From positions 4,604 through 68,603 of the forward strand of contig JAYUMN010000054.1 in assembly GCA_043762595.1 (NCBI GenBank): a stretch of 64,000 bases of DNA, in the 5' to 3' direction. Origin of the DNA: Frankiales bacterium. GTDB taxonomy: Bacteria; Actinomycetota; Actinomycetes; Mycobacteriales; SCTD01. A program made the position numbers and the translations under genes. Positions 31,757 through 49,595 of this stretch are shown piece after piece. The notes below the pieces were generated by a model, which was given only the letters and a program-made list of their open reading frames with translations, was not told the origin of the DNA and did not search any database. Within the stretch, counting starts at the first letter, position 1; each line of letters starts with the position of its first letter.

Positions 31757-32518
31757 ATGAGCGATGACGACCTGGTCCCCCTGTCCGACGAAGGCGACGC
31801 CACCGGCTTCGATGTCGTCCTGCGCGGTTACGACCGCCGCCAGGTCGACGAGCACCTGGACAAGGTGGCGCTGGCGTGGTCTGACGCGGACCGCCAGCAC
31901 GCCGACGACAGCGCCCGCCGGACGGCCCTTGAGCAGGAGCTGGCCGCGCAGCAGACCGCGCTCGCCGATGCCGAACAGCGCGCCGCCGGGCTGCCCGAGC
32001 CAGCCAGCCGGCTCGGCGAGCGGCTCGCGGCGATGCTCGAGCTGGCCGAACAGGAGGCCGCCGAGCTGCGGGACCAGGCCCACGCCGAAGCCGAACGCAT
32101 TGTCAGGCAGGCCCAGCAGCAGGCCGACCAGACCACCGCCGAGCGGACCGCGTCGCTCGACCAACGAGAGCGGGAGATCGCGGGCGCCGCGCAGGCCGCC
32201 GAGCAGACCCGGCTGGAGGCACAACGCGACGCCGAACAGGTCCGCAGCCGGGCCAAGCAGGAGGCCGAGACCCTGCTCGCGCAGGCCACCTCGGAGAGCC
32301 GGGCGAAGCGCCAGCGGGCCGAAGAGGACATCAAGATCCTGCATGACGACGCCCGCGCCGAGTCGGCGTCGATGACGTCGGAGGCCCGGCGGCAGGTCAC
32401 CGAACTGTCGCAGCGCCGCGATCTGATCGTTGCCCAGCTGCAGTCGGCGAGCCAGACCCTGTCGCCGGCGCTGCCCGGCCAGGCTGGTGGCCCAGCCGCA
32501 CAGCCCCCGGCACCGTGA
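31757..32518 (+). CDS. DivIVA-domain coiled-coil protein
   Basis: FDVVLRGYDRRQVDEHLDKV, then about 200 aa of Ala/Glu/Gln/Arg coiled coil. Confidence 0.75.
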   Translation: MSDDDLVPLSDEGDATGFDVVLRGYDRRQVDEHLDKVALAWSDADRQHADDSARRTALEQELAAQQTALADAEQRAAGLPEPASRLGERLAAMLELAEQEAAELRDQAHAEAERIVRQAQQQADQTTAERTASLDQREREIAGAAQAAEQTRLEAQRDAEQVRSRAKQEAETLLAQATSESRAKRQRAEEDIKILHDDARAESASMTSEARRQVTELSQRRDLIVAQLQSASQTLSPALPGQAGGPAAQPPAP

Positions 32519-33831
32519 CCGAGCTCGAGGCGGCCCGCGAAGCAGCACAGGACGCCGCCAGTGCGGCCCACCGGGCCGAACAGGCAGAGGACCAGGCCGA
32601 AGCCGCCGAGCAGGGCGCGCAGCGGGCGCAGAGCAAGGCCGAGCAGGCCGAGGCGGGAGCCCGGGAGGCAGCCGAGCTGGCCGCCCACGCGGCCATCGAG
32701 ACGGACCAGATCGAGGGGCCGCACGACCCGGCGCTTGAGTCGGTGCTGCGGCGGATCGAGGCGCAGGTCAGTGAGGACGCGCCGTACGGCGTACCGGGAC
32801 CCCCGATCAGCCGCCGCTCGCCGTTTCACATCGCTTTCACCGCGGCGCTCGGGGTGGCCCTGGCCTATCTGCTGATCCGGGCCGTCGTCACCGTCCGGTC
32901 GGTGCTCCTGCTGCTGGTGGTCTCGGGCTTCCTGGCGATCGGCCTCAACCCGGCGGTCGAGTGGTTCGAGCGGCGCGGGATCGGTCGCGGTCGGGCGGTC
33001 GGGATCGTGCTCGTCATCGTCCTGCTGCTGTTCGCGGGCTTCGCGTTCGCCATCGTGCCGCCGATCGTCGAGCAGGGCCAACAGCTCTACGACAAGGCGC
33101 CGGACTACCTCCAGCAGCTCCAGCGCAACCGCCAGATCGCCCGCCTGGATGAGCAGTTCCACGTGATCAAGCAGGGCCAGGACTATCTCAACAGGGGCAA
33201 CGTCGGCGCGTCGGCGTTCGGCGGGGTGCTCGGGGTCGGCAAGTTCGTGTTCAACGCGCTGTTCACGTCCATCACCGTGCTGACGCTGACGCTGTACTTC
33301 ATGGCCAACCTGCCCACCATGAAGCGAGCCGCCTACCGCAGCGTCCCGCGGAGCCGGCGGGCCCGCGTCGGGATCTTGTCCGACGACATGCTCGAGCGAG
33401 TCGGCGGGTATGTGCTCGGCTGCCTCACGATCGCCGGTGTGGCCGGTGCCACGTCGTTCATCATGCTGCTCCTGCTGGGCGTTCCCTATCCCTTGCCGCT
33501 CGCCCTGGTCGTGACGTTCACCGACCTCATCCCGGTCATCGGGGCAACCATTGGCGCGGCGGTCGTGACTCTGGTGGCGTTCCTCGTCTCGGTGCCGGTC
33601 GGGCTCGGTGTCGGCGGCTTTTACCTCGTCTACCAGCAGTTCGAGAACTTTGTGCTCTACCCGCGGATCATGAAGCGTTCAGTCGACGTCTCGCCGGCCA
33701 CGACGGTCGTGGCGATCCTGATCGGTGGCTCCCTGCTCGGCATCCTCGGCGCCCTGCTGGCGATCCCGATCGCGGCCGCCGTCCAACTGGTGCTTCAGGA
33801 GGTCCTGCTACCCCGCCAGGAGCAGGTCTGA
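32515..33831 (+). CDS. AI-2E family (PerM/UPF0118) transporter with about 100-aa coiled-coil N-terminal extension
   Basis: GFLAIGLNPAVEWFERRGIGRG, FTDLIPVIGATIGAAV, LLGILGALLAIPIAAAV. GTGA overlap with the upstream stop. Confidence 0.85.
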   Translation: MTELEAAREAAQDAASAAHRAEQAEDQAEAAEQGAQRAQSKAEQAEAGAREAAELAAHAAIETDQIEGPHDPALESVLRRIEAQVSEDAPYGVPGPPISRRSPFHIAFTAALGVALAYLLIRAVVTVRSVLLLLVVSGFLAIGLNPAVEWFERRGIGRGRAVGIVLVIVLLLFAGFAFAIVPPIVEQGQQLYDKAPDYLQQLQRNRQIARLDEQFHVIKQGQDYLNRGNVGASAFGGVLGVGKFVFNALFTSITVLTLTLYFMANLPTMKRAAYRSVPRSRRARVGILSDDMLERVGGYVLGCLTIAGVAGATSFIMLLLLGVPYPLPLALVVTFTDLIPVIGATIGAAVVTLVAFLVSVPVGLGVGGFYLVYQQFENFVLYPRIMKRSVDVSPATTVVAILIGGSLLGILGALLAIPIAAAVQLVLQEVLLPRQEQV

Positions 33832-33838
33832 CCCCGGC

Positions 33839-34570
33839 TCAGGGGTAGTACCTGGGCAGCGGGAACGACGCCGGTGCGACCCGCTGGACGATCTCGTCCA
33901 GGACCGTGTCGGCGTAGCCGACCCACAGGTGCTTGGCCCGGTCGACGCCGACCACCTCGGCCTGCGGCACGGCCCTGAACCGCTCGCGCGCCTCGGCTGG
34001 CCGCAGGTAGTCGTCGAGCTCGGGGACGAGCGCGAGAAGCGGCTTGCCGGAGACCCCCCACGACGTGAGATCGGCCGGGGTCGAGAAACGCAGCGGCGGG
34101 CTGAGCAGGACGGCACCGACGACGGTCGGATCGCAGCCGTAGCGCAAGGCCAGATCGGTCCCGAAGCTCCAGCCGACCAGCCAGACCGTCGGCAGGTCGA
34201 GCGCCTCGCACAGGTCCAGGGCCGCAGCGACGTCGTACCGCTCGGTGTCGGCGTTGCCGAACGCACCCTCGCTGGTGCCCTGAGCACTGGTCGTGCCGCG
34301 GGTGTTGAAGCGCAGCACCGCGAGCCCGGCCAGCGCCGGGAGCCGATTGGCCATCTTCTTGAGCAGGTGGCTGTCCATCATGCCGCCGCCGCTCGGCAGC
34401 GGGTGCAGGCAGACCAGCGTCGCGACCGGCGGCCGACCTGCCGGCAGTGCCAGCTCACCGACGAGCCGCAGGCCGTCCGTCGTCTCCAGGGTGACCGGGC
34501 GCCGTTCGGCCGGCAGCACCGTGTTGGCGCGGATTTCCGGCATGCCCACCTTCCCTTCCTCGCCGATCAT
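33839..34570 (-). CDS. alpha/beta-fold hydrolase
   Basis: LVCLHPLP...GGMMDS, nucleophile elbow LVGWSFGTDLAL, about 243 aa. Confidence 0.75.
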   Translation of the reverse strand: MIGEEGKVGMPEIRANTVLPAERRPVTLETTDGLRLVGELALPAGRPPVATLVCLHPLPSGGGMMDSHLLKKMANRLPALAGLAVLRFNTRGTTSAQGTSEGAFGNADTERYDVAAALDLCEALDLPTVWLVGWSFGTDLALRYGCDPTVVGAVLLSPPLRFSTPADLTSWGVSGKPLLALVPELDDYLRPAEARERFRAVPQAEVVGVDRAKHLWVGYADTVLDEIVQRVAPASFPLPRYYP

Positions 34571-34703: not shown

Positions 34704-35012
34704 TCAGTGTCGTGGGGCGCCCCGGCCGCGTAGGACCCCCGGCGCGCGACGGGCCCGGGCCCCCCAGCACGGGGTGTGCCAGTGTCGGCGCGAGTCCGGG
34801 TCGCCAGTCGGCCAGGCCACGATGTGCGGGACCCGGCTGATCTCCTGGTCACAACCCGGGCAGCGGTGTACCCGGTCGGACGCCCCGACCGAGCGGACGG
34901 TGGCGCCGCCCACGGTCTGCTCGCCGGCCGGCAACCGCAACGGCTCGTCCGAGCTGCGCAGCGCCGCGAGCGCCTCCGCGTGCCGGGCGGCGCGCCGCGA
35001 TCCCTTGCCCAT
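34704..35012 (-). CDS. small conserved-looking zinc-ribbon protein
   Basis: HRCPGCDQEI...RRHWHTPCW. It lies directly downstream of the dehydrogenase gene. The C-terminal tail is low-complexity, so the end is uncertain. Confidence 0.5.
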   Translation of the reverse strand: MGKGSRRAARHAEALAALRSSDEPLRLPAGEQTVGGATVRSVGASDRVHRCPGCDQEISRVPHIVAWPTGDPDSRRHWHTPCWGARARRAPGVLRGRGAPRH

Positions 35013-35017
35013 CCGCG

Positions 35018-36796
35018 CTACCGCTTGGCGTAGTCGCGGAAGCCCCGACCGGTTTTGCGGCCGAGGTAGCCGGCCTTGACCAGGTGCTCGAGCATCGGCG
35101 CGGGAGCGTGGCCGGGCTCGCGGAACTCGTCGTACAGCGTCTTCTGGATGGCCAGGCTCACGTCGAGTCCGACGACGTCCAGCAGCGCGAATGGTCCCAT
35201 CGGGTGGCCGCAGCCGACTGTCATCGCGGCGTCCATGTCGTCGATCGTGGCGTAGTGCGCCTCAAGCATCCGGACCGCGTCGTTGAGGTAGGGAAACAGC
35301 AGCGCATTGACGATGAACCCGGCCCGGTCGCCGCACAGCACCGGATGCTTGTCGAGCTTCGTGCACAGCGCCAGCACGGTGGCAACGACGTCGGGCGCGG
35401 TGGTGACCGTCGGGACGATCTCGACCAGCTTCATCACCGTCGCCGGGTTGAACCAGTGCATGCCGACAACGTCGCCCGGTCGCGACGTCGCGGTCGCGCA
35501 CTCGATGACCGGCAGCGACGAGGTGGTCGTGGCGAGGACCGCGCCAGGCTTCATCACGTCGTCCAGCGCCGAGAACAGCGCTCTTTTGATCGCCAGCTCC
35601 TCCACGACGGCTTCGATGACCAGATCGCAGTCGGCGAGGTCGTCCAGCGAGGTGGTGCCGGTCACGTGCACGAGCGTCGCCGCCTGCTCGTCATCGGTGA
35701 GCTTGCCTCGTTGCACAGCTTTGTCGAGCGAGCCCGTCAACCTCGCGAGGGCACCGGCAATCTTGTCCTGCCCGCGGGCCCGGAACACCACGTCGTAGCC
35801 GGCCTTGGCACAGACCTCGATGATGCCGACCGCCATCGTGCCGGTGCCGACGACCCCGATGCGGGTGATCGGCCGCGCGGTCGCCCCCGACGACGCGGCC
35901 GGGGTGTCGCTGTCGGCGACGACCTGCGAGGTGTCCTTGCCGGCGTATCTGTAAAAGCCGCGGCCACTCTTGCGGCCGAGCAACCCGGCGGTGACGTACT
36001 GCTTGAGCATCGGCGCGGGCGCGTGCAGATGGTCGCGCGACTGGGCGTACATCGTCTCGAGGATCTCGTACGCCGAGTCGAGGCCAATCAGGTCGAGCAG
36101 CGCGAGCGGGCCCATCGGGTGGCCGCAGCCGAGGCGCATCGCCGCGTCGATGTCCTCGCGGCTGGCGAAGCGCGATTCATACATCCGGACGGCACTGTTG
36201 AGGTAGCCGAACAGCAGCGCGTTGGCGATGAAGCCAGCCCGGTCACCGGCGATGGCCGCGGTCTTGCCGACCTGGGCGACGAGCGCCTCGACGTCTTCGA
36301 CGACCGACGGGTCGGTCACGACGGTTCTCACCACCTCGACCAGCCCCATCACCGGGGCCGGGTTGAACCAGTGCAGGCCCACCACCCGGGACGGCCGCCC
36401 GGTCGAGGTGGCCAGCTCGGTCACCGACAGCGCGGAGGTGTTCGTGGCGAGCACCGCGTCGGCGGGCAGCAGCGCATCGAGCTTGGCGAACAGCTCGCGC
36501 TTTTGCTCCATCCGCTCCGGAATTGCCTCGACGACCAGCTCGCAATCGGCGAGGGCGGCCAGATCTGTACCGGTCGAGATCCGGCTGAGCAGCTCGTCGA
36601 CCTCGGTCTGGCTGATCTTGCCGCGCTTGAGCGCCCGCCCGGTGGAAGCGGCCAGGTGGCCGTGCGCGCGCTCGACCGCTGCCTGGTCGTGCTCCACCCC
36701 GACGACCTGCACTCCGGAGCGCGCCAGCACCTCGGCGATGCCGGCACCCATCGTGCCGAGACCGACTACACCGATCTTGCTAAACGCGCGTGCCAC
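35018..36796 (-). CDS. tandem-duplicated 3-hydroxyacyl-CoA (3-hydroxybutyryl-CoA) dehydrogenase
   Basis: Two full HBD units: IGVVGLGTMGAGIAEVLARSG...FIANALL...GHPMGPLALLDLIGLD, and IGVVGTGTMAVGIIEVCAKAG...FIVNALL...GHPMGPFALLDVVGLD. Confidence 0.88.
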   Translation of the reverse strand: MARAFSKIGVVGLGTMGAGIAEVLARSGVQVVGVEHDQAAVERAHGHLAASTGRALKRGKISQTEVDELLSRISTGTDLAALADCELVVEAIPERMEQKRELFAKLDALLPADAVLATNTSALSVTELATSTGRPSRVVGLHWFNPAPVMGLVEVVRTVVTDPSVVEDVEALVAQVGKTAAIAGDRAGFIANALLFGYLNSAVRMYESRFASREDIDAAMRLGCGHPMGPLALLDLIGLDSAYEILETMYAQSRDHLHAPAPMLKQYVTAGLLGRKSGRGFYRYAGKDTSQVVADSDTPAASSGATARPITRIGVVGTGTMAVGIIEVCAKAGYDVVFRARGQDKIAGALARLTGSLDKAVQRGKLTDDEQAATLVHVTGTTSLDDLADCDLVIEAVVEELAIKRALFSALDDVMKPGAVLATTTSSLPVIECATATSRPGDVVGMHWFNPATVMKLVEIVPTVTTAPDVVATVLALCTKLDKHPVLCGDRAGFIVNALLFPYLNDAVRMLEAHYATIDDMDAAMTVGCGHPMGPFALLDVVGLDVSLAIQKTLYDEFREPGHAPAPMLEHLVKAGYLGRKTGRGFRDYAKR

Positions 36797-36838: not shown

Positions 36839-37492
36839 TCAGAACAGGGTCGGCGTCGCGCTCTGCATCCCGCGCAGCGCGTCGTAGTCGAGCTGGACAC
36901 AGACGATCCCCCGATCGGCGGCCAGCACCTTGGCCTGCGGCTTGAAGCTCTGCGCTGCCAGGACGCCCTGCACCTGCCCCAGCACGGTCGAGACCCGCTG
37001 CAGGTAGCGGGTGAGCTGCTCAACGCCGTCGATCTCGGCGTGCCGCTTCACCTCGACCAGCACGTGCGCGCCGGCGGCATCGCGGCACAGCAGGTCGACT
37101 GGCCCGATGTCGGTGAAGTACTCCCGCTGGACGAGCGTCCAGCCCTCGCCGAGCACGTGGCACTGCTCGGCGAGCAGCGCCTGCAGGTGCTTCTCGACAC
37201 CGTCCTTGACCAGGCCAGGGTCGATCCCCAGCTCGTGCGAGCTGTCGTGCAGCACCTCCTCGACGGCGATCACCAGCTGCTCACCCGCGTTGTTGGTCAC
37301 GGTCCAGACGCCGTCCACCTCATGCGTTCTACACGGCGGGCTCATCCACATGAGCGGCTTGAACGCCCGGTCGTCGGCGTGGATCGACACCGAGCCGTCG
37401 GCCTTGACGAGCAACAGCCGGACCGCAACGGGCAGGTGGGCGGTCAGCCGGCCGACGTAGTCGACGGTGCAGCGGGCGAGGACGAGACGCAC
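36839..37492 (-). CDS. nucS: endonuclease NucS (EndoMS, non-canonical mismatch repair)
   Basis: [21 protein letters not shown]...[16 protein letters not shown]...[22 protein letters not shown] start. Confidence 0.93.
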
Positions 37493-37525
37493 GTGTCAAG
37501 GCTAGGCCAGGGCGTGCAGCAGACT

Positions 37526-39349
37526 GTGCCGGTGAGTACGCCCGAGCAGCACCGGCCGCCCGTCTACGCCTGCGCGGCGGGGGCGGTCCTGCACGCGCAC
37601 TCGGCGAGCACGCTCGAGCCGGCAGTGCTGCTCTACACCTTCCTGCCGCCCGGTGCGGGCGACCGGCTCGACGCGCTCGACGCGCGGGTCGACGTGCACG
37701 GCGACGGGCCCGGCTCGGCCACCGTCACCGTGCGGGTGCTGTCGGAGGGCCAGTCGCTGTCGTGGCAGCTGCCGCTCGCGCCGTTCGTCGCGGCGCTGCC
37801 AGGACAGCCCGGCGACGACGGCCGGATGGTGCTACTCGGGGTCGTCGACGCCGAGCCCGAGCAAGGCTTCTGGGCCGAGCCGGTGGACTGCGAACGGCTG
37901 GCCGCCGAGTTGCAGTTGCCGGTCGCAGACCTCGTCGACGCCCTGCGTGGGCGCCTCACCCCGTGGCTGGCCGACGACGTCGATGTACTGCTCCACGACG
38001 ACGCGCACGAGCACGCCGCTGACCTCTCACCCGCACAGACCCTCGCCGCCGCCGTGCTCGCCACCTACCGGGGTGATCTCACCGCCGAGCAGGCCACCGG
38101 CCGGCTGCTGCGAGCCTTCGACATGGCACCGGAGGAGTTCCAGACCGAGCTTGGCGGCCGCCTGTGCACGGCGCTGGTCGCTGCGGTCAGCGCGGCGGGG
38201 GCGACCGGCATCGCCACCGTGCTGGAGCAGACGGGCCCATTCGAGCCCGAGGTGCTCCGGCTGCTCGCCGACCTGCCTGCGCGGCTCCGCCCGGACGACC
38301 CGGCCGCCGATGACGCCCGCACTGCGGCCGACGTCGTACTGGCGGGTTCCGACCACGACGAGTCGGTGCGCGCCGCGGTCGCCGCGATCGCCCGGCTGGC
38401 GCGCGCCGCGTTCGGCGAGGGCCTCGCCGACGAGGACCTGCTGCAGCGGGTGAGCATGGTGAGCGACCAGGGCCTGGCCCGGCTGGCCGGGCTCTGGGTC
38501 GATCTGGCCGCTGCCGCATCGGCCACCGGGGAGCGCGACGACGTGACCGCAGCGGGACTGGCCGACCGGGTCGCCGCAACCGGCGCGCCCGGCGCCGGCT
38601 GGCTACGGGCCACCGCGGTCGCCTTGGCGGCGCTGGCGACGCAGGCAGCCGGGCGGGGCACCGCCCGGCTGGCTGAGCCACTCGAACAGGTGGCCGTCTC
38701 ACTCGTCGACCATCCCCGGCCGGGCGAGGGCGTCGAGCCGGCCCAGGCCGCCGGCACGCTGCGGGCCTGCCTCCAGCTGGCGCGGTACGCCCGGTCGCGA
38801 GCCGGCGCCGGTCCGGGGTCATGGCTGCAGCTGCCAGTGGTCCCGGCCGCCCACGCAGTCGGGAGTGCGCTCGCCGGCGGACTGGACCGGGAGCTCGCCC
38901 TGGACCTGCTCGGCGAGCTGCTCGAGAGCGACGTGCAGGCGCCGGACCTGATCGAGGCGTTCGTCTGCAGCACCGCCCAACTGCTGATCGAGCTCGACCC
39001 GCTGGACGGTCCGGAGCTACTGCGGGCGCAGGTCCTCGAGCTGTTGGCTGCGGTCCCTGGCGGCGCCAAGGGGGCCCGCTGGCTGCTCACGGCGTGCCTA
39101 CGCGAGGCTCCGGAGCATGACCCGGCCGCGACCGACCTCGGTCCGTTCGTGGCCGGCGAGCCGGTGGTGGATGTCGACCGGCTGGCCGGCCGGATCGGCA
39201 AGCGTGGGGTCCTCGACGCCGGGCTGCGGTGCCTCGACGCGCTGGCGGCGAGCTTCGGCGAAGCCGCCGGCCTGTCGAGGGCGGAAGTACTCGGCCTCGT
39301 GCTGCCCGGTTCGCTGGCCGAGCACGACCTGCTGCGCCGGCCCGCCTGA
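37526..39349 (+). CDS. hypothetical acidic Ala/Leu-rich protein (about 607 aa), no family recognised
   Basis: Strong GC3 and natural D/E/L/A composition from about 37.5 kb to the TGA at 39347-39349. Candidate GTG starts at 37493, 37514, 37526 and 37532. The upstream part of track ORF 35084 is an antisense shadow of hbd and nucS. Confidence 0.6.
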   Translation: MPVSTPEQHRPPVYACAAGAVLHAHSASTLEPAVLLYTFLPPGAGDRLDALDARVDVHGDGPGSATVTVRVLSEGQSLSWQLPLAPFVAALPGQPGDDGRMVLLGVVDAEPEQGFWAEPVDCERLAAELQLPVADLVDALRGRLTPWLADDVDVLLHDDAHEHAADLSPAQTLAAAVLATYRGDLTAEQATGRLLRAFDMAPEEFQTELGGRLCTALVAAVSAAGATGIATVLEQTGPFEPEVLRLLADLPARLRPDDPAADDARTAADVVLAGSDHDESVRAAVAAIARLARAAFGEGLADEDLLQRVSMVSDQGLARLAGLWVDLAAAASATGERDDVTAAGLADRVAATGAPGAGWLRATAVALAALATQAAGRGTARLAEPLEQVAVSLVDHPRPGEGVEPAQAAGTLRACLQLARYARSRAGAGPGSWLQLPVVPAAHAVGSALAGGLDRELALDLLGELLESDVQAPDLIEAFVCSTAQLLIELDPLDGPELLRAQVLELLAAVPGGAKGARWLLTACLREAPEHDPAATDLGPFVAGEPVVDVDRLAGRIGKRGVLDAGLRCLDALAASFGEAAGLSRAEVLGLVLPGSLAEHDLLRRPA

Positions 39350-39353
39350 GCCG

Positions 39354-40340
39354 ATGAACACCGACCGGGTGGGGCTCCCCCGGCCGGCTGTGACGATCGT
39401 CGACCCGGCGGCGCCACGCTGCGCCCAGACGGGCGACCAGGGGCGCCCACCGGTCTGGCGTCCCGGCGGCCGCACCTGGGCCGTCGTCGGGGGGACCCTG
39501 GTTGTGGTGGTGACCCTCTCGGCCGGCCGGCACGCCCTCGACACCCGCCACGCCAGTCGGGTCGCGGCGCGTCGGGCAACCCTCGCCGCCGCGGTCGTCG
39601 CGGTCCGCATCGGCGGCCCGGGCGGGCGCGACAGCGCCGGCGGCGCCGCATCCGTCGGCATCCGGCTGGTCAACTCCGGACCCCGGCCGATCCGGCTCGA
39701 GGCAGCTCGGCTCGACGTCGGGGGCTGGACCGCGAGACTGCCGGCCGAGCCCGTCGGGGCGGGTGCAAGCGCGCTGCTGGAGCTGCGCCGCAAGGTCGAG
39801 TGCGCCACCGTCGACCGGCTGCGGAGCCCCGCGATCGTGCTCCTCACGGTCCGCACCGCGGACGGCCGCAGCCACGACACATCACTCGGGCTCGGTCCGC
39901 AGGACGCGGCCGACCCGGCCCGCCAGGTCCGGGAGGCGCTGTTCAGCGCGCCGAGGCGGGCCTGCGGCGTGCTGCCGCCGATCGACGCCTTCGCGGTCGA
40001 CCTGGCGCACACCTCGACCTCCCAGCGGCCGGGATCGGTGCTCACGGTCCTCCCGATCGCCAACACCTCGTCCCGACAGCTCACCCTGTTGTCGGTCCGT
40101 GGGATCAACGGTCTCGCCGTCGTCAGCGCCAGTCAGCTGCCCGTGCTGCTGCCACCCGGTCGTGGGAGCCGCTTCGCGATGGTCCTGACCCTGGCCGACT
40201 GCCGGGACCCCCTGCTCCGGCAGGCCCGGATCGCCGTCACGCTGCGCGGCGAGGGCGCCGACTACGCTGAGACAGACACCGATCTCGGCGCCGCCGCAGT
40301 AGCTGCCGTCAACGGTCTCGGGGTGCGGCGCTGCCGGTGA
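39354..40340 (+). CDS. hypothetical single-pass membrane protein with two similar beta-rich extracytoplasmic segments
   Basis: ATG 4 bp after the upstream stop. TM helix WAVVGGTLVVVVTLSA. Two segments each carry a strand-like pattern (GIRLVNSGPRPIRLEAARL and TVLPIANTSSRQLTLLSVRG). Confidence 0.6.
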   Translation: MNTDRVGLPRPAVTIVDPAAPRCAQTGDQGRPPVWRPGGRTWAVVGGTLVVVVTLSAGRHALDTRHASRVAARRATLAAAVVAVRIGGPGGRDSAGGAASVGIRLVNSGPRPIRLEAARLDVGGWTARLPAEPVGAGASALLELRRKVECATVDRLRSPAIVLLTVRTADGRSHDTSLGLGPQDAADPARQVREALFSAPRRACGVLPPIDAFAVDLAHTSTSQRPGSVLTVLPIANTSSRQLTLLSVRGINGLAVVSASQLPVLLPPGRGSRFAMVLTLADCRDPLLRQARIAVTLRGEGADYAETDTDLGAAAVAAVNGLGVRRCR

Positions 40341-42333: not shown

Positions 42334-43329
42334 TCAGCCGGCACCGAACACCACCACCCGTACGCCGGGCAAGCGGCAGGCCTGCCCGCGGTCGGCCACC
42401 AGGAGCAGCACCGTGCCGCCGGGCCCGGCCGCCCTGGTCGCGGCCAACAGGTCGCTCGCGAGCAACGGGCCGGCCCGGTCGACCCCGGCGAACCAGTCGA
42501 GCACGCCCGTCACGCCGAGCCCGGTCGCCAGCGGACCGCCGAGCAGGACCGGCAGGGCGCCGTCGCGGGTGGCCTGCACCGCGAGGGCTGCGGCCTGCGC
42601 GACCCCCTCCTCCCAGACCGGTCCGGCGCCGCCGCCACCGGTGAGCACGATGAGCGAACGCCCACTGTCGCGCTCGCGTTCGAGCACGACGGGGCGGCCG
42701 TGCCGGGCGGTCGCCCTCGGCGAGACCGAACGGGCGCTGTCGCCGGGGCGCCACGGCCGTAAGCCGAGCACCTCGGCGCCGGCCCCGGCCAGCGGGCGGC
42801 TGTGCTTCGCGCCGCCAACCGATCCGACCGGGTCGAGCGCCCGCGCAGGGACCGCGACCGGGTGCACGATCAGCCGGGCCGCCGCGGCAACCTCGCGGCG
42901 CACCCGCACCAGGCCGTACGGCGCGGCCGAACTGAGCTGCGCCGATGTCCCGTCATACACGCCGCGGCGCAGCGCGGTCCGGTGCTCGGTGAACCACGCC
43001 GTCGCCCCGGGCGCGAGGGCCGGGACGGCGATGACGACCGGCGACAGTCCGTCCACCCGGTCGGTCCAGCGCAGCGGTGGGCTCGTCCGCCGGCCGACGT
43101 TGCAGATGGTGTGCACCACCTCGCCGGGTTGCCCGGCGACGGCCCGAGGCGGACAGCGACGGGTGACTTCGAGGTCACCGAGGCGGGCCGGTAGCAACAG
43201 GGCGGCGACCGGCAGACCGAGGCAGGCGGCCGAGCCGAGGGCGAGCCAGCTGTTACCGGTCACCCGGACCAGCAGGTGCAGGACCAGCGCGGCGCCGAGC
43301 GGCAGCCAGCAGGCGCGGGTCGGCCTCAT
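42334..43329 (-). CDS. DUF58-domain protein
   Basis: Two N-terminal TM helices, then LGLRPWRPGDSARSVSPRATARHGRPVV, the DUF58 signature region. ATGA overlap with the moxR stop. Confidence 0.8.
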   Translation of the reverse strand: MRPTRACWLPLGAALVLHLLVRVTGNSWLALGSAACLGLPVAALLLPARLGDLEVTRRCPPRAVAGQPGEVVHTICNVGRRTSPPLRWTDRVDGLSPVVIAVPALAPGATAWFTEHRTALRRGVYDGTSAQLSSAAPYGLVRVRREVAAAARLIVHPVAVPARALDPVGSVGGAKHSRPLAGAGAEVLGLRPWRPGDSARSVSPRATARHGRPVVLERERDSGRSLIVLTGGGGAGPVWEEGVAQAAALAVQATRDGALPVLLGGPLATGLGVTGVLDWFAGVDRAGPLLASDLLAATRAAGPGGTVLLLVADRGQACRLPGVRVVVFGAG

Positions 43330-44303
43330 CCCCGCAGCGGCACGGGGACCGCGACGACCAGCTCGGCGACCAGCTGCTGACCCCGACGCAGCCCAGCGCC
43401 GTCGCGAAGCACCAGCCGATGGCCGAGCACGGGGGCGGCAAGGGCCTTGACGTCGTCGGGCAGCACGTGATCACGACCTCCGAGCAGCGCGCGGGCCTGC
43501 GCGCAGCGGACCAGGGTGAGCGCCGCGCGGGTGCTGGCCCCCAGCTCGACCGCGGGGTGGTTGCGGGTGGCCTCGGCGAGCCGGACGGCATGATCGAGGA
43601 CGGCGTCGGCCACGTGCGTGCGGCGGCTCTCGGCCCGCACGTGGACCAGCTCGTCGGGGGTCGTGACGGCACCGAGCTCGTCCACGGTCGCGTGGTCTAG
43701 CTGCTCGCGGACGACCCGCCGCTCGGTCGCGGGGTCATTCGGCCCGAGAGCCAGCGTCACGGCGAACCGGTCCAGCTGGCCCTCCGGCAGCGGATAGGTG
43801 CCGTACTGCTCCAGCGGGTTCTGCGTCGCCAACACCACGAACGGGTCGGGCAACCGGTGCCTTGTCCCGTCGACCGTGACGGCGCCCTCGTCCATCGCCT
43901 CGAGGAACGCCGATTGCGTGCGCGGCGGCGTGCGGTTCAGCTCGTCGACAAGGACCACGTTGCCGAAGATCGGCCCAGGAACGAAGCAGAAGCCGCGCCG
44001 GTCGGGCTCCCACACCCCACTGCCGGTGATGTCACCAGGCAGCAGGTCCGCGGTGCCCTGGATCCGCTGGAAGCTGCCGCCGAGGCTTCGGGCGACGGCC
44101 CGGGCGAGGGTCGTCTTGCCGCTGCCGGGGACGTCCTCGACAAGCACGTGGCCGCCGGCGAGCACCGCGCAGACGACCAGCTCGACCTGTCCACGCCGGC
44201 CGTGGACGACCAGCTCGACATTGGCCACCAGCCGGCTCGCCACGATGGCGGCCCCGGCTCTGCCGGGCATCGGCAGGACGTCGGCGAGGTGTTGCGCGGT
44301 CAA
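43326..44303 (-). CDS. MoxR-family AAA+ ATPase
   Basis: GGHVLVEDVPGSGKTTLARAVA, VLVDELNRTPPRTQSAFLEAM, VLATQNPLEQYGTYPLPEGQLDRF. The start is uncertain: TTG at 44303, ATG at 44270, or the track start at 44414, which overlaps the divergent gene. Confidence 0.85.
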   Translation of the reverse strand: MTAQHLADVLPMPGRAGAAIVASRLVANVELVVHGRRGQVELVVCAVLAGGHVLVEDVPGSGKTTLARAVARSLGGSFQRIQGTADLLPGDITGSGVWEPDRRGFCFVPGPIFGNVVLVDELNRTPPRTQSAFLEAMDEGAVTVDGTRHRLPDPFVVLATQNPLEQYGTYPLPEGQLDRFAVTLALGPNDPATERRVVREQLDHATVDELGAVTTPDELVHVRAESRRTHVADAVLDHAVRLAEATRNHPAVELGASTRAALTLVRCAQARALLGGRDHVLPDDVKALAAPVLGHRLVLRDGAGLRRGQQLVAELVVAVPVPLRG

Positions 44304-44377
44304 CAGCTTCTCCTCAAAGTTGGCGTTGCCGGGTGCATCGGCGTGCGTTTCGGCCCGCTCAAGCCCACAGTGGGGAT

Positions 44378-45109
44378 GTGACCATCGAGCCACTGCGCGA
44401 GGACGCTCCGCCACTGCCCGGTCGGGTGGTCTTCAGCCAGCGCTGGACTGACCTGGCGATGCTGCACTGGCCGGTCGACCCGGCGCTCGTGGCCCCGCTG
44501 CTGCCTCCGGGCACGTTCGCTGATCTGCACGATGGCGCGACGTACGTCGGGCTGGTGCCCTTCACGATGACCGATGTCGAGGTTCTGGGGACGCCGCCGC
44601 TGCCCTGGCTCTCGCGCTTCGACGAGACCAATGTCCGCCTGTACGCCGTGGACGCCGACGGCCGTCGCGGGGTCGTGTTCCGCTCGCTGGAGGCGGCCCG
44701 GCTGCTGCCGGTGCTGGCGGCGCAGCTCGCCTACCACCTGCCCTACCGCTGGGCCAGGATGCGGGTGGTCGCCGACGGCCCCCGACGCACCTGGACCACG
44801 TCCAGGCGCTGGCCGGGCCCGCGCGGCGCCGGCGGAAGCATCGCGATCGAGATCGGCGAACGTTACGAGCCCGACCCGCTGTCGCTGTTCCTGACCGCCC
44901 GCTGGGGGCTCTACTCCCGCTTTTACCGCGGTAGGACCGCCTGGGCGCCGGTCCACCACGAGCCGTGGCCGCTGCACCGGGCCCGGCTGCTGCGGCTGTC
45001 CGACAACCTCGTCCAGGTCGCCGGGCTCCCCGCCCCGGTCGGTGAGCCGCACGTGCTGTGGAGTCCCGGCGTGACCGTCCGGATCGGCCGCCCAACGGCG
45101 CTGCGCTGA
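44378..45109 (+). CDS. DUF2071 (YqjF-like) protein
   Basis: FSQRWTDLAMLHWPVDP...GLVPFTM...FDETNVRLYAV...GVVFRSLEAAR...YHLPYRWARM. GTG at 44378 preferred. Confidence 0.7.
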   Translation: MTIEPLREDAPPLPGRVVFSQRWTDLAMLHWPVDPALVAPLLPPGTFADLHDGATYVGLVPFTMTDVEVLGTPPLPWLSRFDETNVRLYAVDADGRRGVVFRSLEAARLLPVLAAQLAYHLPYRWARMRVVADGPRRTWTTSRRWPGPRGAGGSIAIEIGERYEPDPLSLFLTARWGLYSRFYRGRTAWAPVHHEPWPLHRARLLRLSDNLVQVAGLPAPVGEPHVLWSPGVTVRIGRPTALR

Positions 45110-45424: not shown

Positions 45425-47449
45425 CTAGCCCAGCGGGGCCAAGCCGTTGGCCGCGCGGACGACCTCGACCACCGCGGCCATGATCTGGGTGAGCTCGAAG
45501 TCCTTGGGGGTAAAGACGCGGGCTACGCCGGCTGCTCGCAGCCGAGCTGCGTCAGCGTCGGGGATGATCCCGCCAACGACAACCGGCACGTCACCGGCGC
45601 CCGCCTCGCGCAGACCCTTGAGCACGGCCGGCACCGCCTCCATGTGTGAGCCGGACAGGATCGACAGCCCGATGACGTGGACGTCCTCCTCGACCGCCGC
45701 GGCGACGATCTGCGCAGCGGTCAGCCGGATGCCCTGGTAAACGACCTCGAAGCCGACGTCGCGGGCCCGGACGGCGATCTGCTCGGCGCCGTTGCTGTGC
45801 CCGTCGAGGCCGGGCTTGCCGACCAGGAAGCGCAGCCGGCTGCCGAGCTCAGCGCCGGTCTGTTTGACCTGTTCGCGGACCGCCGCGACCGCCGAGCCGG
45901 CCTCAGCACCAACGATCGCGCCGCTTACCCCGGTCGGCGCGCGGTATTCCCCGAACACCTCGCGCAGCACCGAGCTCCACTCCCCGGTCGTGACGCCCGC
46001 GCGGGCGCAGGCGATGGTGGCCGGCATCAGGTTCTGGTCGGTCTTGCACGCATCGCGCAGCGCCCGCAGGGTTTCGTCGACCAGCGCGGCGTCGCGGCCC
46101 GCCCGCCAGCCGCGAATCGCCTCGACGGCGCGTGCCTCGGTCGCCGGGTCGACGGTCATGATCGCGCCGTCGATGTCAGCCAGCAGCGGGTTGGGCTCGC
46201 TGGTGGTGAATCGGTTGACCCCGACCACGACGTCCTCGCCGGCCTCGATCCGGCGGCGCCGCTCGGCGTGCGATGCCACCATGGCACTTTTCATGTAGCC
46301 GGTCTCGACGGCTGCGACGGCGCCGCCCATCGCCTGCACTCGGTCGACCTCGGCCCGCACCTGGCTCACCAGGTCGTCGACTTTGGCTGCCACCACGACC
46401 GAGCCCTCGAACAGGTCGTCGTACTCAAGCAGGTCGGTCTCGAAGGCGAGCACCTGCTGCAGCCGCAGGGACCACTGCTGATCCCAGGGACGTGGCAGCC
46501 CGAGCGCTTCGTTCCAGGCCGGCAGCTGGACGGCGCGGGCACGGGCGTCCTTCGACAGCGTGACGCCCAACATCTCGAGCACGATCCGCTGGACGTTGTT
46601 CTCCGGCTGGGCCTCGGTCAGCCCAAGCGAGTTGACCTGTACGCCGTACCGGAACCGGCGGTGCTTGGGATCCTGGACGGCGTACCGCTCGAGCAGCAGC
46701 GCATCCCACAGGCGGGTGAACGCCCGCATCTTGCACATCTCCTCGACGAAACGGACTCCGGCATTGACGAAGAACGAGATCCGGGCGCAAACCTCACCGA
46801 AGCGTTCGTCGGACACCTGACCGGCGGCCTTGACCGCGTCGAGCACCGCGATAGCCGTGCAAAGCGCGTAGGAGATCTCCTGGACCGGCGTGGCGCCAGC
46901 CTCCTGCAGGTGGTAGCTGCAGATGTTGATCGGGTTCCACTTGGGGATCGCGGTGACCGTGTAGGCGACCATGTCAGTGATCAGCCGTAGCGACGGACCG
47001 GGCGGAAAGACGTAGGTCCCCCGGGAGAGGTACTCCTTGATGATGTCGTTCTGGGTGGTGCCGGCAAGCGCTTCGGCGTCGGCGCCCTGTTCCTCGGCAA
47101 CCACCTCGTAGAGCGCCAGCAGCCACATTGCGGTGGCGTTGATCGTCATCGAGGTGTTCATCTCGGCCAGCGGGATGTCGTGGAACAGCGCCCGCATGTC
47201 ACCGAGGTGGCTGACCGGGACTCCGACCTTGCCCACCTCGCCGCGGGCCAGCTCGTCGTCCGGGTCGTAGCCGGTCTGGGTCGGCAGGTCGAAGGCGATC
47301 GACAGGCCGGTCTGCCCTTTGGCCAGGTTCATCCGATAAAGCTCGTTGCTCTTGACGGCAGTGCTGTGGCCGGCGTAGGTACGCATCACCCAGGGCTTGT
47401 CCCGGGACGGCCGGGTGACGGATCCGCTGCCGTTCGCCGAGCCGGTCAT
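45425..47449 (-). CDS. ecm: ethylmalonyl-CoA mutase (MeaA-type B12-dependent acyl-CoA mutase, fused B12 domain)
   Basis: KPWVMRTYAGHSTAVKSNELYRMNLAKGQTGLSIAFDLPTQTGYDPDD. C-terminal GKPGLDGHSNGAEQIA (DxHxxG-type B12 loop). Confidence 0.9.
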   Translation of the reverse strand: MTGSANGSGSVTRPSRDKPWVMRTYAGHSTAVKSNELYRMNLAKGQTGLSIAFDLPTQTGYDPDDELARGEVGKVGVPVSHLGDMRALFHDIPLAEMNTSMTINATAMWLLALYEVVAEEQGADAEALAGTTQNDIIKEYLSRGTYVFPPGPSLRLITDMVAYTVTAIPKWNPINICSYHLQEAGATPVQEISYALCTAIAVLDAVKAAGQVSDERFGEVCARISFFVNAGVRFVEEMCKMRAFTRLWDALLLERYAVQDPKHRRFRYGVQVNSLGLTEAQPENNVQRIVLEMLGVTLSKDARARAVQLPAWNEALGLPRPWDQQWSLRLQQVLAFETDLLEYDDLFEGSVVVAAKVDDLVSQVRAEVDRVQAMGGAVAAVETGYMKSAMVASHAERRRRIEAGEDVVVGVNRFTTSEPNPLLADIDGAIMTVDPATEARAVEAIRGWRAGRDAALVDETLRALRDACKTDQNLMPATIACARAGVTTGEWSSVLREVFGEYRAPTGVSGAIVGAEAGSAVAAVREQVKQTGAELGSRLRFLVGKPGLDGHSNGAEQIAVRARDVGFEVVYQGIRLTAAQIVAAAVEEDVHVIGLSILSGSHMEAVPAVLKGLREAGAGDVPVVVGGIIPDADAARLRAAGVARVFTPKDFELTQIMAAVVEVVRAANGLAPLG

Positions 47450-47493: not shown

Positions 47494-47829
47494 TCAGGGG
47501 CAGCGCGTCGTACGCAGCACCCGGTCCAGCCGGGTGACGAACAGCAGTCGACCGACCGGGTCGGGGACGTCACGAAGAACGAGCGTGCGGCCGGCCCGCT
47601 GGGCCCGGCGATGCGCGCCAACGAGGACGCCGAGGCCAGTCACATCGACCGCGCGGAGCTCGCTGAGATCCACGACGAGCTCGCCAGCTCCGTCGTCGAC
47701 GGCCTGGGCGAGCGCGAGGCGGGCATCGGTCGACGCGCTGACGTCGAGCCGGCCGTGCAACGACACGACGGTGCCGGTCTCGATGACGCGTAGCCCTGAG
47801 GGTCCGTCAAGTTCGATGGTCATCCGCAC
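47494..47829 (-). CDS. STAS-domain anti-sigma-factor antagonist
   Basis: LHGRLDVSASTDARLALAQAV...LVVDLSELRAVDVTGLGVLVGA. Confidence 0.8.
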   Translation of the reverse strand: MRMTIELDGPSGLRVIETGTVVSLHGRLDVSASTDARLALAQAVDDGAGELVVDLSELRAVDVTGLGVLVGAHRRAQRAGRTLVLRDVPDPVGRLLFVTRLDRVLRTTRCP

Positions 47830-48003: not shown

Positions 48004-48333
48004 GTGCCGGTCGTCTCGAGCTACCACTATTTGCTGGGACCGCTCGTCGCTGTCGCTGCGCTCGTCCTGCTGCTGCTGATCTGTCGCTGGGTCTTCTCGA
48101 CCGATCAGCGTGACGATCGCACGGCGCGTCGCCTTGAGCGGCTGGCCGGCGCCGGCGACTACGGGCTGCTGGTGCCGATCAGTACCGTCCGCACCCGAGA
48201 CGACGCCCTGATGCTGGGCAGTGTGCTGCGCGAGGCTGGCATCCGGGCCAGCGTGTCGCATGACGCAGCTGTCTTCGTGGTGCTCGTTTTTCGCGCCGAC
48301 GCGCCGCGGGCCCGCCAGCTCGTCGCTCAGTAG
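48004..48333 (+). CDS. small membrane-anchored protein (C-terminal domain reminiscent of DUF2007)
   Basis: GTG start, [24 protein letters not shown], good GC3. The 3' end overlaps the murA 3' end by 7 bp. Confidence 0.6.
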
Positions 48334-49595
48334 GGCTCGTCCGGCCCCGGCTCACGACGTACCTCCGCCCCCAGAGCCACCAGGTCGGCCACGAAGTGCT
48401 CGTAGCCGCGATCGATGTGCTGCACATCGCCCACCTCGGTCACCCCCTCCGCCACCAGTCCAGCGAGCACGAGCGCCGCGCCGGCTCGGATGTCGTGCGC
48501 CCGCACCGGCGCCCCACTGAGCCGCTCCCGCCCGCGGACGACCGCGTGGTGCCCGTCGGTCCGCACGTCGGCGCCGAGCCGGGTCAGCTCGTTGACGAAC
48601 ATCCAGCGGGCCTCGAAGACGTTCTCAGTGATCATCGCGGTGCCGTCCGCGACGGCGTTCAAGGCCATCACCATTGGCTGCAGGTCGGTCGGAAAACCCG
48701 GGTAGGGCAATGTCACGACGTCCACGGCCCGGGCCCGACCGTCCATCCGTACGCCGAAGCCGTCTGGGGTGGGCGTGACGACCGCGCCCGCCAGAACGAG
48801 CTTGTCGAGAGCGACCTCGAGATGGTCGGCACGGCCTCCCCGGACGAAGATATCACCGCGGGTGATCACCGCGGCAACGGCCCAGGTGCCCGCGACGATG
48901 CGGTCGGGCAACGTCTCGTGGGTGGTCGGGTGCAGGCGCTCGACGCCCTCCACGGTGAGCGTGCTGGTGCCGATACCGTCGATCTGCGCCCCGAGCGCAA
49001 CGAGGAACTCGCACAGGTCGACCAGGTCCGGCTCACGGGCGGCGTTGTCGATCGTGGTCGTGCCCTTGGCCAGAACGGCGGCCATCAGCAGATTTTCGGT
49101 GGCCCCGACGCTCGGAAAGTCGAGCCACACCGACGCACCGGTCAGCCGCGGGGCACGGGCCAGCAGATAACCGTGCTCGCTATGGATCGTCGCGCCGAGC
49201 TTGGCCAGCCCGGAGATGTGCATGTCCAGACCACGCGAGCCGATGGCGTCGCCACCGGGGAGCGCCACTTTCGCCTGCCCACATCGCGCGATCAACGGGC
49301 CGAGCACCGCGATCGAGGCGCGCATCCGCCGGACCAGCTCGTAGTCGGCCTCGTGGCCGAGCTCCTCCGGCACGTCGATGACGACCGACCGCTCGGCTCG
49401 GGTGACCGTGCAGCCCAGCCGACGCAGCACCTCGCTCATGATCGTCACGTCCAGGATCTCGGGGACAGCGGTCAGCGTCGTCACCCCTGGGGCCAGCAAG
49501 GCTGCAGCCATCAGCTTGAGCACGCTGTTCTTGGCGCCGGTCACCGACACCTCACCGGCCAGCCGGGCTCCTCCAGTCACGATGAAGCGATCCAC
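48327..49595 (-). CDS. murA: UDP-N-acetylglucosamine 1-carboxyvinyltransferase
   Basis: [31 protein letters not shown]...[15 protein letters not shown] (Asp at the fosfomycin-target position, as in other actinobacteria)...PGFPTDLQ. Confidence 0.93.

Follow-up and report, generated by a model that had tools for sequence, protein, structure and literature searches.

Two orphan genes between nucS and a MoxR-DUF58-TgpA-type operon in a Frankiales bacterium

Taxonomically restricted families of 'conserved hypothetical' (DUF-type) proteins occur in uncultured taxa. The nucS gene is widespread in Actinomycetota, and in mycobacteria a small Rv1322-like open reading frame (ORF) is known as its neighbour. 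In Bifidobacterium, the PFNA cluster has the gene order pkb2-fn3-aaa_atp-duf58-tgm, where aaa_atp encodes a MoxR protein, and the product of its fn3 gene is a membrane protein that has two FN3 domains, is species-specific and evolves fast (PMC8430577). In Mycobacterium tuberculosis, a TANNNT motif precedes transcription start sites by 7-12 bp (PMC3898074). Here we report on a locus that resembles each of these in part. It lies in a 64,000-nucleotide stretch of a Frankiales bacterium (assembly GCA_043762595.1, contig JAYUMN010000054.1, positions 4,604 to 68,603 of the forward strand), the whole of which is called the window below, and consists of two co-oriented genes, gene 1 and gene 2, that stand between a divergent nucS and a convergent operon encoding a TgpA-like transglutaminase, a DUF58-like protein and a MoxR ATPase. 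A preliminary description, made from the sequence alone, had taken the pair for a family-less, lineage-specific module inserted into a conserved backbone. We judge it probable, with some reserve, that the locus instead holds two unrelated protein-coding orphans which share a transcript only in the window's sub-lineage. The features at the centre of the argument are as follows.

37532-39349, plus strand: gene 1, 605 amino acids (aa)
37532-38056, plus strand: N-terminal domain of gene 1 (N-domain), codons 1-175, the most constrained part; AlphaFold predicted local distance difference test score (pLDDT) below 50
38057-39349, plus strand: predicted C-terminal all-α domain of gene 1 (C-domain), about 430 aa in about 24 helices; AlphaFold pLDDT mostly above 90
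39350-39353, plus strand: spacer gccg, 4 nt, from the gene 1 stop to the gene 2 ATG, read from the sequence
39354-40340, plus strand: gene 2, 328 aa, pI 11.4
40309-40340: convergent 3' overlap of gene 2 and tgpA, 32 bp, with stops at 40338-40340 (plus) and 40309-40311 (minus)

Both ORFs have the composition and the substitution pattern of real genes. The GC content at the first, second and third codon positions is 0.85/0.53/0.89 in gene 1 and 0.78/0.61/0.90 in gene 2, similar to that of the neighbouring genes, in a region of high-GC actinobacterial DNA (70-79% GC). The ratio of nonsynonymous to synonymous substitution rates (dN/dS), computed against the orthologues in four related loci (L054, L001, L028 and L053), is 0.07-0.17 for gene 1 (dS 0.29-0.68) and 0.09-0.10 for nucS (dS 0.18-0.23), compared to 0.47-0.54 for gene 2 (dS 0.17-0.78) and 0.33 for tgpA (dS 0.22). 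Gene 1 is constrained as strongly as nucS, and purifying selection on gene 2 is weak but real. In high-GC DNA long shadow ORFs arise, and the gene 1 frame is open back to position 35084, antisense to nucS and to the dehydrogenase gene next to it, so that one or both ORFs might be taken for spurious open frames. This explanation is ruled out, to a probability that is close to nil, by dN/dS values well below 1 while dS is substantial, by a third-position GC content of about 0.9 in the proposed frames, by ends that are common to hundreds of full-length homologues, and by confident AlphaFold domains in both proteins. The preliminary description was thus right to see two co-oriented coding ORFs here, and its spacing of 4 bp between them (TGA at 39347-39349, then gccg, then ATG at 39354) and its 32-bp overlap of gene 2 with the 3' end of the transglutaminase gene were found again.

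Gene 1 belongs to a family of its own. Its homologues form at least 252 clusters at 90% identity (53-96% identical), all of them unnamed or called 'hypothetical protein', and come from metagenome-assembled genomes (MAGs) labelled Frankiales, Mycobacteriales or Actinomycetota. When one genome of each GTDB species was scanned, the family was present in 47 species, every one of them uncultured. An hmmsearch with a gene 1 profile against 1.84 billion representatives at 50% identity gave 45 matches: full-length members in three or four clusters, fragments of this family, and a single marginal match, a protein of 1450 aa (E 5e-5); no credible remote relative was seen among these representatives. In being single-copy-looking, unannotated, under purifying selection and limited to one MAG-only lineage, gene 1 resembles the clade-restricted 'conserved hypothetical' families mentioned above. 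It differs from typical ones in its unusual length (605 aa), in the sharp split of constraint between its domains, and in a conserved promoter that moves along with the gene. On four long Microflora Danica contigs (L036, L037, L038 and L044) the homologues are split over two or three frames, which reflects either long-read frameshift errors in high-GC DNA or pseudogenes.

The gene 1 protein is acidic (pI 4.5), as had been described, with a net charge of -18 in the N-domain and -23 in the C-domain, and its hydropathy profile holds no convincing membrane segment. An AlphaFold model built from 18 sequences, in a 618-residue numbering, agrees with the earlier all-helical prediction for residues ~175-618, which are confidently modelled as all-α, but not for the first ~175 residues, which are predicted with low confidence as mixed β/α. 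It is in this N-terminal part that conservation is highest. Across 121 sequences, identity to the window is 75-92% in the N-domain and 32-69% in the rest of gene 1, and 96 positions are at least 99% identical. At about equal dS, dN is 4-10 times lower in the N-domain than in the C-domain; the asymmetry is at the protein level, and an overlapping element at the DNA level is therefore not its cause. The N-domain is rich in invariant His, Asp, Glu, Cys and Trp. Its near-invariant polar residues include D54, R68, W78, Q92, R98, D106, E108, D119, C120 and E126, followed by LLH155-D156-D157-A-H159, D164 and S166; those of the C-domain include R418, R421, D467, C479, H529-D530, D535 and E597-H598. 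From this pattern we infer, and only infer, that an active site or a site for a ligand is more probable here than a scaffold. A functional site in the N-domain, be it catalytic or metal/ligand binding, is a tentative suggestion, to which we give a rather low probability.

Database searches gave gene 1 no known relative. For both genes, scans against Pfam, NCBIfam, PADLOC and PHROGs gave no usable match, in agreement with their earlier description as family-less. Full-length gene 1 had no Pfam match at E <= 1, and four gene 1 N-domains had none at E <= 10. Profile searches against PDB sequences returned chance matches only (E 0.05 and 0.44), Foldseek, run with the gene 1 model on PDB and BFVD, had no match below E 0.5, and no internal helical repeats were detected in gene 1. 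Among metal-dependent hydrolase folds, an HD domain (LLHDDAH) and a cupin (HxH...E) were considered on the strength of a likeness of motifs, and were dropped because they had no profile or fold support.

The 5' end of gene 1 faces that of nucS, and each gene has a putative promoter element of its own in the space between them.

36839-37492, minus strand: nucS, 217 aa, divergent neighbour of gene 1; Pfam NucS_N and NucS_C, NCBIfam NF002876 (E 8e-105)
37499-37504, minus strand: putative -10 hexamer of nucS, TAGCCT (a match to TANNNT), 6 nt upstream of the nucS GTG
37520-37525, plus strand: putative -10-like hexamer of gene 1, CAGACT (ANNNT at -11 to -7), 6 nt upstream of GTG 37532

Four in-frame GTG codons, at 37493, 37514, 37526 and 37532, could open gene 1, at 0-39 bp from the nucS GTG at 37492. 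Because the homologues begin with M[ST][TA]PEQH (18 aligned, then 120 more), which corresponds to GTG 37532, this codon is the most likely start, and would give a protein of 605 aa and a gap of 39 bp to the nucS GTG. Ahead of the start, 30 of 41 distinct sequences from the gene 1 family combine A at -11 with T at -7, whatever the upstream gene (consensus GAGAATGG); the hexamer is CAGACT in the window and GAGAAT in the family consensus. On the nucS side, TAGCCT or TACCGT stands at -12 to -7 in 14 of 16 distinct upstream regions, a position that implies a leaderless nucS mRNA. Since the conserved position of the gene 1 hexamer fits the mycobacterial TANNNT -10 element, the gene 1 mRNA, too, is predicted to be leaderless and to start from a promoter that belongs to gene 1 itself. 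Both genes would in this respect resemble the leaderless TANNNT genes of M. tuberculosis, with hexamers at -12 to -7 and no Shine-Dalgarno sequence, and the gene 1 hexamer departs from the M. tuberculosis box in that T at -12 is never present. In six loci (L004, L006, L012, L015, L017 and L031), a TTG start is located ~25-31 nt downstream of the GAGAATGG box, with a Shine-Dalgarno-like GAGAGGA between the two. Within the clade, gene 1 seems to have gone over from one form to the other, leaderless or leadered.

In the window, the two putative -10 boxes stand back to back within the 39-bp spacer. Since in so short a spacer each upstream promoter half must cover the start of the other gene, the divergent promoters of nucS and gene 1 are predicted to overlap physically, much as had been proposed when their interdigitation was deduced from the 0-40 bp between the possible starts. 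The spacer measures 60-100 bp in L002, L003, L004, L040 and L042, so that the tight packing would be peculiar to the window's close relatives. A scan for E. coli-type promoters and terminators found nothing, as is expected at such GC content.

To place the locus among its relatives, 14 window proteins were mapped by tblastn onto 56 related loci, and called genes with Pfam labels were also used. The shared backbone runs AI-2E - hydrolase - Rv1322-like - dehydrogenase - nucS / gene 1 / mutase - (S8 peptidase) - STAS - EPSP synthase. In L003/L055, L004 and L026 the mutase gene follows only 20-120 bp after gene 1, with nothing else between. Because of this order of nucS, gene 1 and mutase in L003, L004 and L026, gene 1 is a backbone gene in the window's clade and not an insertion. 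Variation is found in the slot that separates gene 1 from the mutase gene. It is empty in the three loci just named, and is occupied by an ABC transporter in L051, by the TgpA operon in L002, L006, L012 and L015, by gene 2 and DUF2071 in L053, and by gene 2, the operon and DUF2071 in the window's group; DUF2071 occurs only in the window's group and in L053. Gene 2, the TgpA-DUF58-MoxR operon and DUF2071 are later additions that were gained or lost independently of each other. The idea of a lineage-specific pair inserted into a backbone is therefore kept for gene 2, a lineage-specific addition, but not for gene 1, a backbone gene whose family is what is lineage-specific.

Away from this backbone, gene 1 is found in unrelated surroundings in ~30 loci. 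These contexts include a thioesterase and a methyltransferase with TldD/PmbA (L048), NlpC/P60 (L050), a kinase with DUF6929 (L052) and SecA (L056). When all neighbouring ORFs were clustered, none was present in more than 14 of 54 loci, and gene 1 therefore lacks a conserved operon partner. It is not tied to nucS or MoxR.

Gene 2 is a protein of a very different kind, and its parts, all on the plus strand, can be listed from the model and the sequence.

residues 1-41: Pro/Arg-rich N-terminal tail
39477-39527 (residues ~42-58): hydrophobic segment WAVVGGTLVVVVTLSAG, a predicted signal-anchor or export signal
39642-39887 (residues 97-178): predicted β-sandwich 1, AlphaFold pLDDT 72-81
residues 187-203: helix predicted by AlphaFold
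39990-40283 (residues 213-310): predicted β-sandwich 2, AlphaFold pLDDT ~90
residues 313-326: C-terminal helix predicted by AlphaFold

The AlphaFold model of gene 2 was made from 9 sequences and leaves residues 1-96 unmodelled. Foldseek found 109 PDB matches at E <= 1e-3; the listed ones are for the most part tandem Ig-like, FN3, PapD-like and cupredoxin structures, among them PmoB (1.8e-7), YadV, CupB2, FimC, RbmA (tandem FN3) and ciliary ASH-domain proteins, and they also include the C-terminal barrels of TG2 and factor XIII. At the fold level, the model, with pLDDT 72-93 over the two regions of strands, supports two tandem Ig-like β-sandwiches. The two similar Ig-like segments of the preliminary description were in this way recovered as folds (AlphaFold, Foldseek) but not as similar sequences, and an internal duplication of gene 2 finds no support in the sequence, its halves having no significant similarity (BLASTP E 0.66, hhalign P 0.07). 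In Pfam the best signal is DUF1573 (E 0.026-0.24, ~12 bits against a cut-off of 26), and no family reaches its threshold. The closest structural comparison is with the two-domain Ig-like or cupredoxin-like periplasmic proteins (YadV, CupB2 and FimC; PmoB/AmoB; RbmA; ASH/DUF1573), which share two consecutive β-sandwiches with residues 97-310 of gene 2 (Foldseek E 1e-7 to 1e-4, probability ~1.0), with the weak DUF1573 signal pointing the same way. Gene 2 differs from these proteins in TM-scores of only 0.2-0.3 and a sequence identity of 8-15%, in a helix after each β-domain, and in having no chaperone, usher or monooxygenase genes nearby. The gene 2 alignment (A2) has C150 and C204 in every member, and C283 and C327 wherever the member extends over them, so that each β-domain probably carries one conserved Cys pair and could form one disulfide.

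Several features of its N-terminal region bear on the location of the gene 2 protein. The hydrophobic segment has a Kyte-Doolittle mean of 1.5 over 19 residues, which is borderline for a membrane helix. At residues 35-44 (39456-39485), five of eight homologues have WRPGRRTWA, a twin-arginine-like motif; the window's gene 2 and a 97%-identical relative read WRPGGRTWA, and one other reads GRCTWA. In the window, the motif may be a degenerating signal for twin-arginine translocation (Tat). We infer that gene 2 encodes an exported or anchored protein of the cell envelope, most likely in a binding or adhesion-type role at the surface.

In its distribution, gene 2 is very narrow. Eight 90%-identity clusters of homologues (51-97% identical) were found among 5.8 billion sequences, by sequence or profile search, and a hidden Markov model of gene 2, run over six-frame translations of all 56 loci, detected it in L001, L028, L054 and L053 only. 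In these loci and in the window it always follows 3-4 bp after gene 1. The L053 copy is 51% identical, and there the next gene is DUF2071 and the TgpA operon is absent; in L002, L006, L012 and L015 only 43-370 bp separate gene 1 from tgpA, and gene 2 is absent. Neither a paralogue of gene 2 elsewhere in the window nor a remnant of its DNA in the relatives that lack it was found. A paralogous relation to the neighbouring DUF58-like protein of the same length was considered and rejected (BLASTP E > 2). No Shine-Dalgarno sequence is visible in the 4-nt spacer between the two genes, and their co-transcription with translational coupling is likely, judging from the spacing. As a two-gene module, the pair is restricted to the window's sub-clade, namely to the window and to L001, L028, L053 and L054.

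With these distributions in mind, one may ask whether either gene is functionally bound to its neighbours. Gene 1 could be tied to nucS, and through it to non-canonical mismatch repair, by the overlapping divergent promoters: the start codons are only 39 bp apart, the -10 hexamers stand back to back, and nucS directly adjoins gene 1 in 8 distinct related loci. Yet in 8 loci the two genes are parted by 1.2-7.4 kb of other DNA, and in ~30 loci no nucS lies within 8 kb of gene 1 (it does in ~16 of 56). Gene 1 also keeps its promoter motif regardless of the neighbour, and is confined to one clade whereas nucS is widespread, all of which makes a functional tie to nucS very improbable. A co-occurrence of the pair with nucS or with the MoxR/DUF58/TgpA triad, raised in the preliminary description, was not borne out, since nucS adjoins in those 8 loci only and the operon and gene 2 occur separately. 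A bond between gene 1 and gene 2 themselves is a better candidate, in which the conserved Pro-rich tail of gene 2, lying in the cytoplasm, would be the docking site of the cytoplasmic gene 1 protein, in a sensor-plus-effector or anchor-plus-enzyme pair. It would account for a spacing of 3-4 bp that is kept in all five gene 2 loci, including L053 at 51% identity, and for a tail motif (M.TD..G.PRP.VT.VDP.AP ... WRPG) that is better kept than the gene 2 average. We nevertheless consider it unlikely, for gene 1 is present in 47 GTDB species and gene 2 in 4 of 56 related loci, the next gene is unrelated in the other loci (methyltransferase, ABC transporter, SecA, NlpC/P60 and others), and the rates at which the two genes evolve differ sevenfold.

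The remaining candidate partner of gene 2 is the operon downstream, to which gene 2 might contribute an FN3-like accessory surface component in the manner of the PFNA fn3. The published cluster unites MoxR, DUF58 and a transglutaminase with a two-FN3 membrane protein (PMC8430577). Like it, the window is actinobacterial and has genes for a MoxR-family ATPase and a membrane transglutaminase, with a putative DUF58-like gene between them, beside a fast-evolving protein with two β-sandwiches, and the Foldseek matches of these β-sandwiches include RbmA and the C-terminal β-barrels of eukaryotic transglutaminases. The 32-bp overlap with tgpA is the same in the L054 gene calls, and according to tblastn coordinates the 3' ends also overlap in L001 and L028. 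However, gene 2 is convergent with the operon, overlaps the 3' end of the transglutaminase gene and is not part of the operon's transcript, whereas the PFNA fn3 lies upstream of its operon and is co-transcribed with it. The flanks of the operon (DUF2071 and the methylmalonyl-CoA mutase gene on one side, gene 2 and gene 1 on the other) hold no Pkinase domain, so that no Ser/Thr kinase gene stands beside it, and gene 2 has no sequence similarity to FN3 (no Pfam FN3 match). Finally, gene 2 and the operon occur independently of each other in relatives: the operon is found without gene 2 in L002, L006, L012 and L015, gene 2 without an adjacent operon in L053, and the operon is absent in L003, L004, L026 and L053. 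A part for gene 2 in a PFNA-like system is, on balance, improbable.

We therefore return to the reading of the locus as two unrelated orphans with a transcript in common only in the window's sub-lineage. According to this reading, gene 1 would be vertically inherited under strong purifying selection, in a family confined to one uncultured clade of Mycobacteriales/"Frankiales". It would be expressed from its own promoter of the leaderless type, carried along into every genomic context, and would yield an acidic, soluble, presumably cytoplasmic protein of two domains, a rigid N-domain and an all-α domain that tolerates change. The helical domain may serve as a scaffold or specificity module, and the protein would function on its own, apart from nucS, the MoxR-DUF58-TgpA operon and gene 2. 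The latter, in turn, would be young or very fast-evolving, and a gain of the window's sub-clade alone. From its place 3-4 bp after gene 1, it would be expressed from the gene 1 transcript, probably through translational coupling, as a single-pass (or Tat/Sec-exported) envelope protein that displays two tandem Ig-like β-sandwich domains.

A number of points weigh against this reading. The Pfam, PDB and BFVD searches gave no match that would point to an activity of gene 1, and the N-domain, which is the key part of it, is modelled at pLDDT below 50. Both 'leaderless' and 'co-transcribed' are deductions from the sequence, and common descent accounts for part of the conservation seen in the upstream hexamer. 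In gene 2, Arg-rich stretches lie on both sides of the borderline hydrophobic segment, which makes the predicted topology uncertain. One may also speculate further, and suppose that gene 1 represents a new family and possibly a new fold, that its N-domain is an undescribed catalytic or metal-binding module with a core, clade-defining function, and that gene 2 is a surface receptor of recent birth or radical divergence that was captured on the leaderless gene 1 transcript. This fuller version is possible, but we hold it to be doubtful.

The other genes around the pair, from the upstream to the downstream side, are these.

32515-33831, plus strand: AI-2E transporter
33839-34570, minus strand: α/β-hydrolase
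34704-35012, minus strand: small Rv1322-like ORF, 102 aa, Cys/His-rich (...HRCPGCDQE...HWHTPCW...)
35018-36796, minus strand: duplicated 3-hydroxyacyl-CoA dehydrogenase, 592 aa
40309-42258, minus strand: TgpA-like transglutaminase; Pfam Transglut_core (E 1.3e-24) and TgpA_N (E 9.8e-13)
42334-43329, minus strand: DUF58-like gene, 331 aa, named from position and size; PF01882 E 0.21
43326-44414 (longest ORF), minus strand: MoxR AAA+ ATPase; AAA_3 (E 1.5e-55) and AAA_lid_2 (E 3.7e-23)
44333-45109, plus strand: DUF2071
45425-47449, minus strand: methylmalonyl-CoA-mutase-type gene
47494-47829, minus strand: STAS
48327-49595, minus strand: EPSP synthase

The small ORF at 34704-35012 is orthologous to L054 and L055 genes that carry the precomputed label PF27609 (Rv1322), and a Pfam scan of the ORF itself gave no match. 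The small neighbour of nucS that the preliminary description mentioned for mycobacteria is thus present in the window, but it is parted from nucS by the dehydrogenase gene. The dehydrogenase is made of two complete units (3HCDH_N and 3HCDH, twice), and this internal duplication is kept in relatives. On the other side, the protein in the DUF58 position gave DUF58 at E 0.21 and CARDB at E 0.11, as a very divergent DUF58-like protein would; its PF01882 score is 11 bits against a cut-off of 23.4, and it is 47-51% identical to the L002, L006 and L015 orthologues, compared to 82-87% for MoxR. At 362 aa, the longest moxR ORF runs 82 bp into the start of the divergent DUF2071 gene (44333-44414). Since the MoxR called in relatives has 325 aa and the tblastn alignments begin at residue 15-38, the true moxR start is probably further downstream and the overlap with DUF2071 an artefact of ORF calling. 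An Rfam scan of the whole 64 kb found no family at gathering score.

Orphan families of the gene 1 kind are common in MAGs, and the locus opens no long-standing question; it is genomic 'dark matter' of good quality and not a demonstrated new system. It does illustrate how a new envelope gene may come to lie 4 bp behind an old gene of the housekeeping type and share the predicted leaderless transcript of that gene, and how relatives differ in what stands between gene 1 and the mutase gene. If the N-domain of gene 1 is indeed a new enzyme or binding module, the family would be an addition to the catalogue of 'dark' proteins. In that case gene 1 would also provide a lineage marker for a widespread uncultured actinobacterial clade, whose habitats include glacier-fed streams, polar and temperate soils, and lakes.

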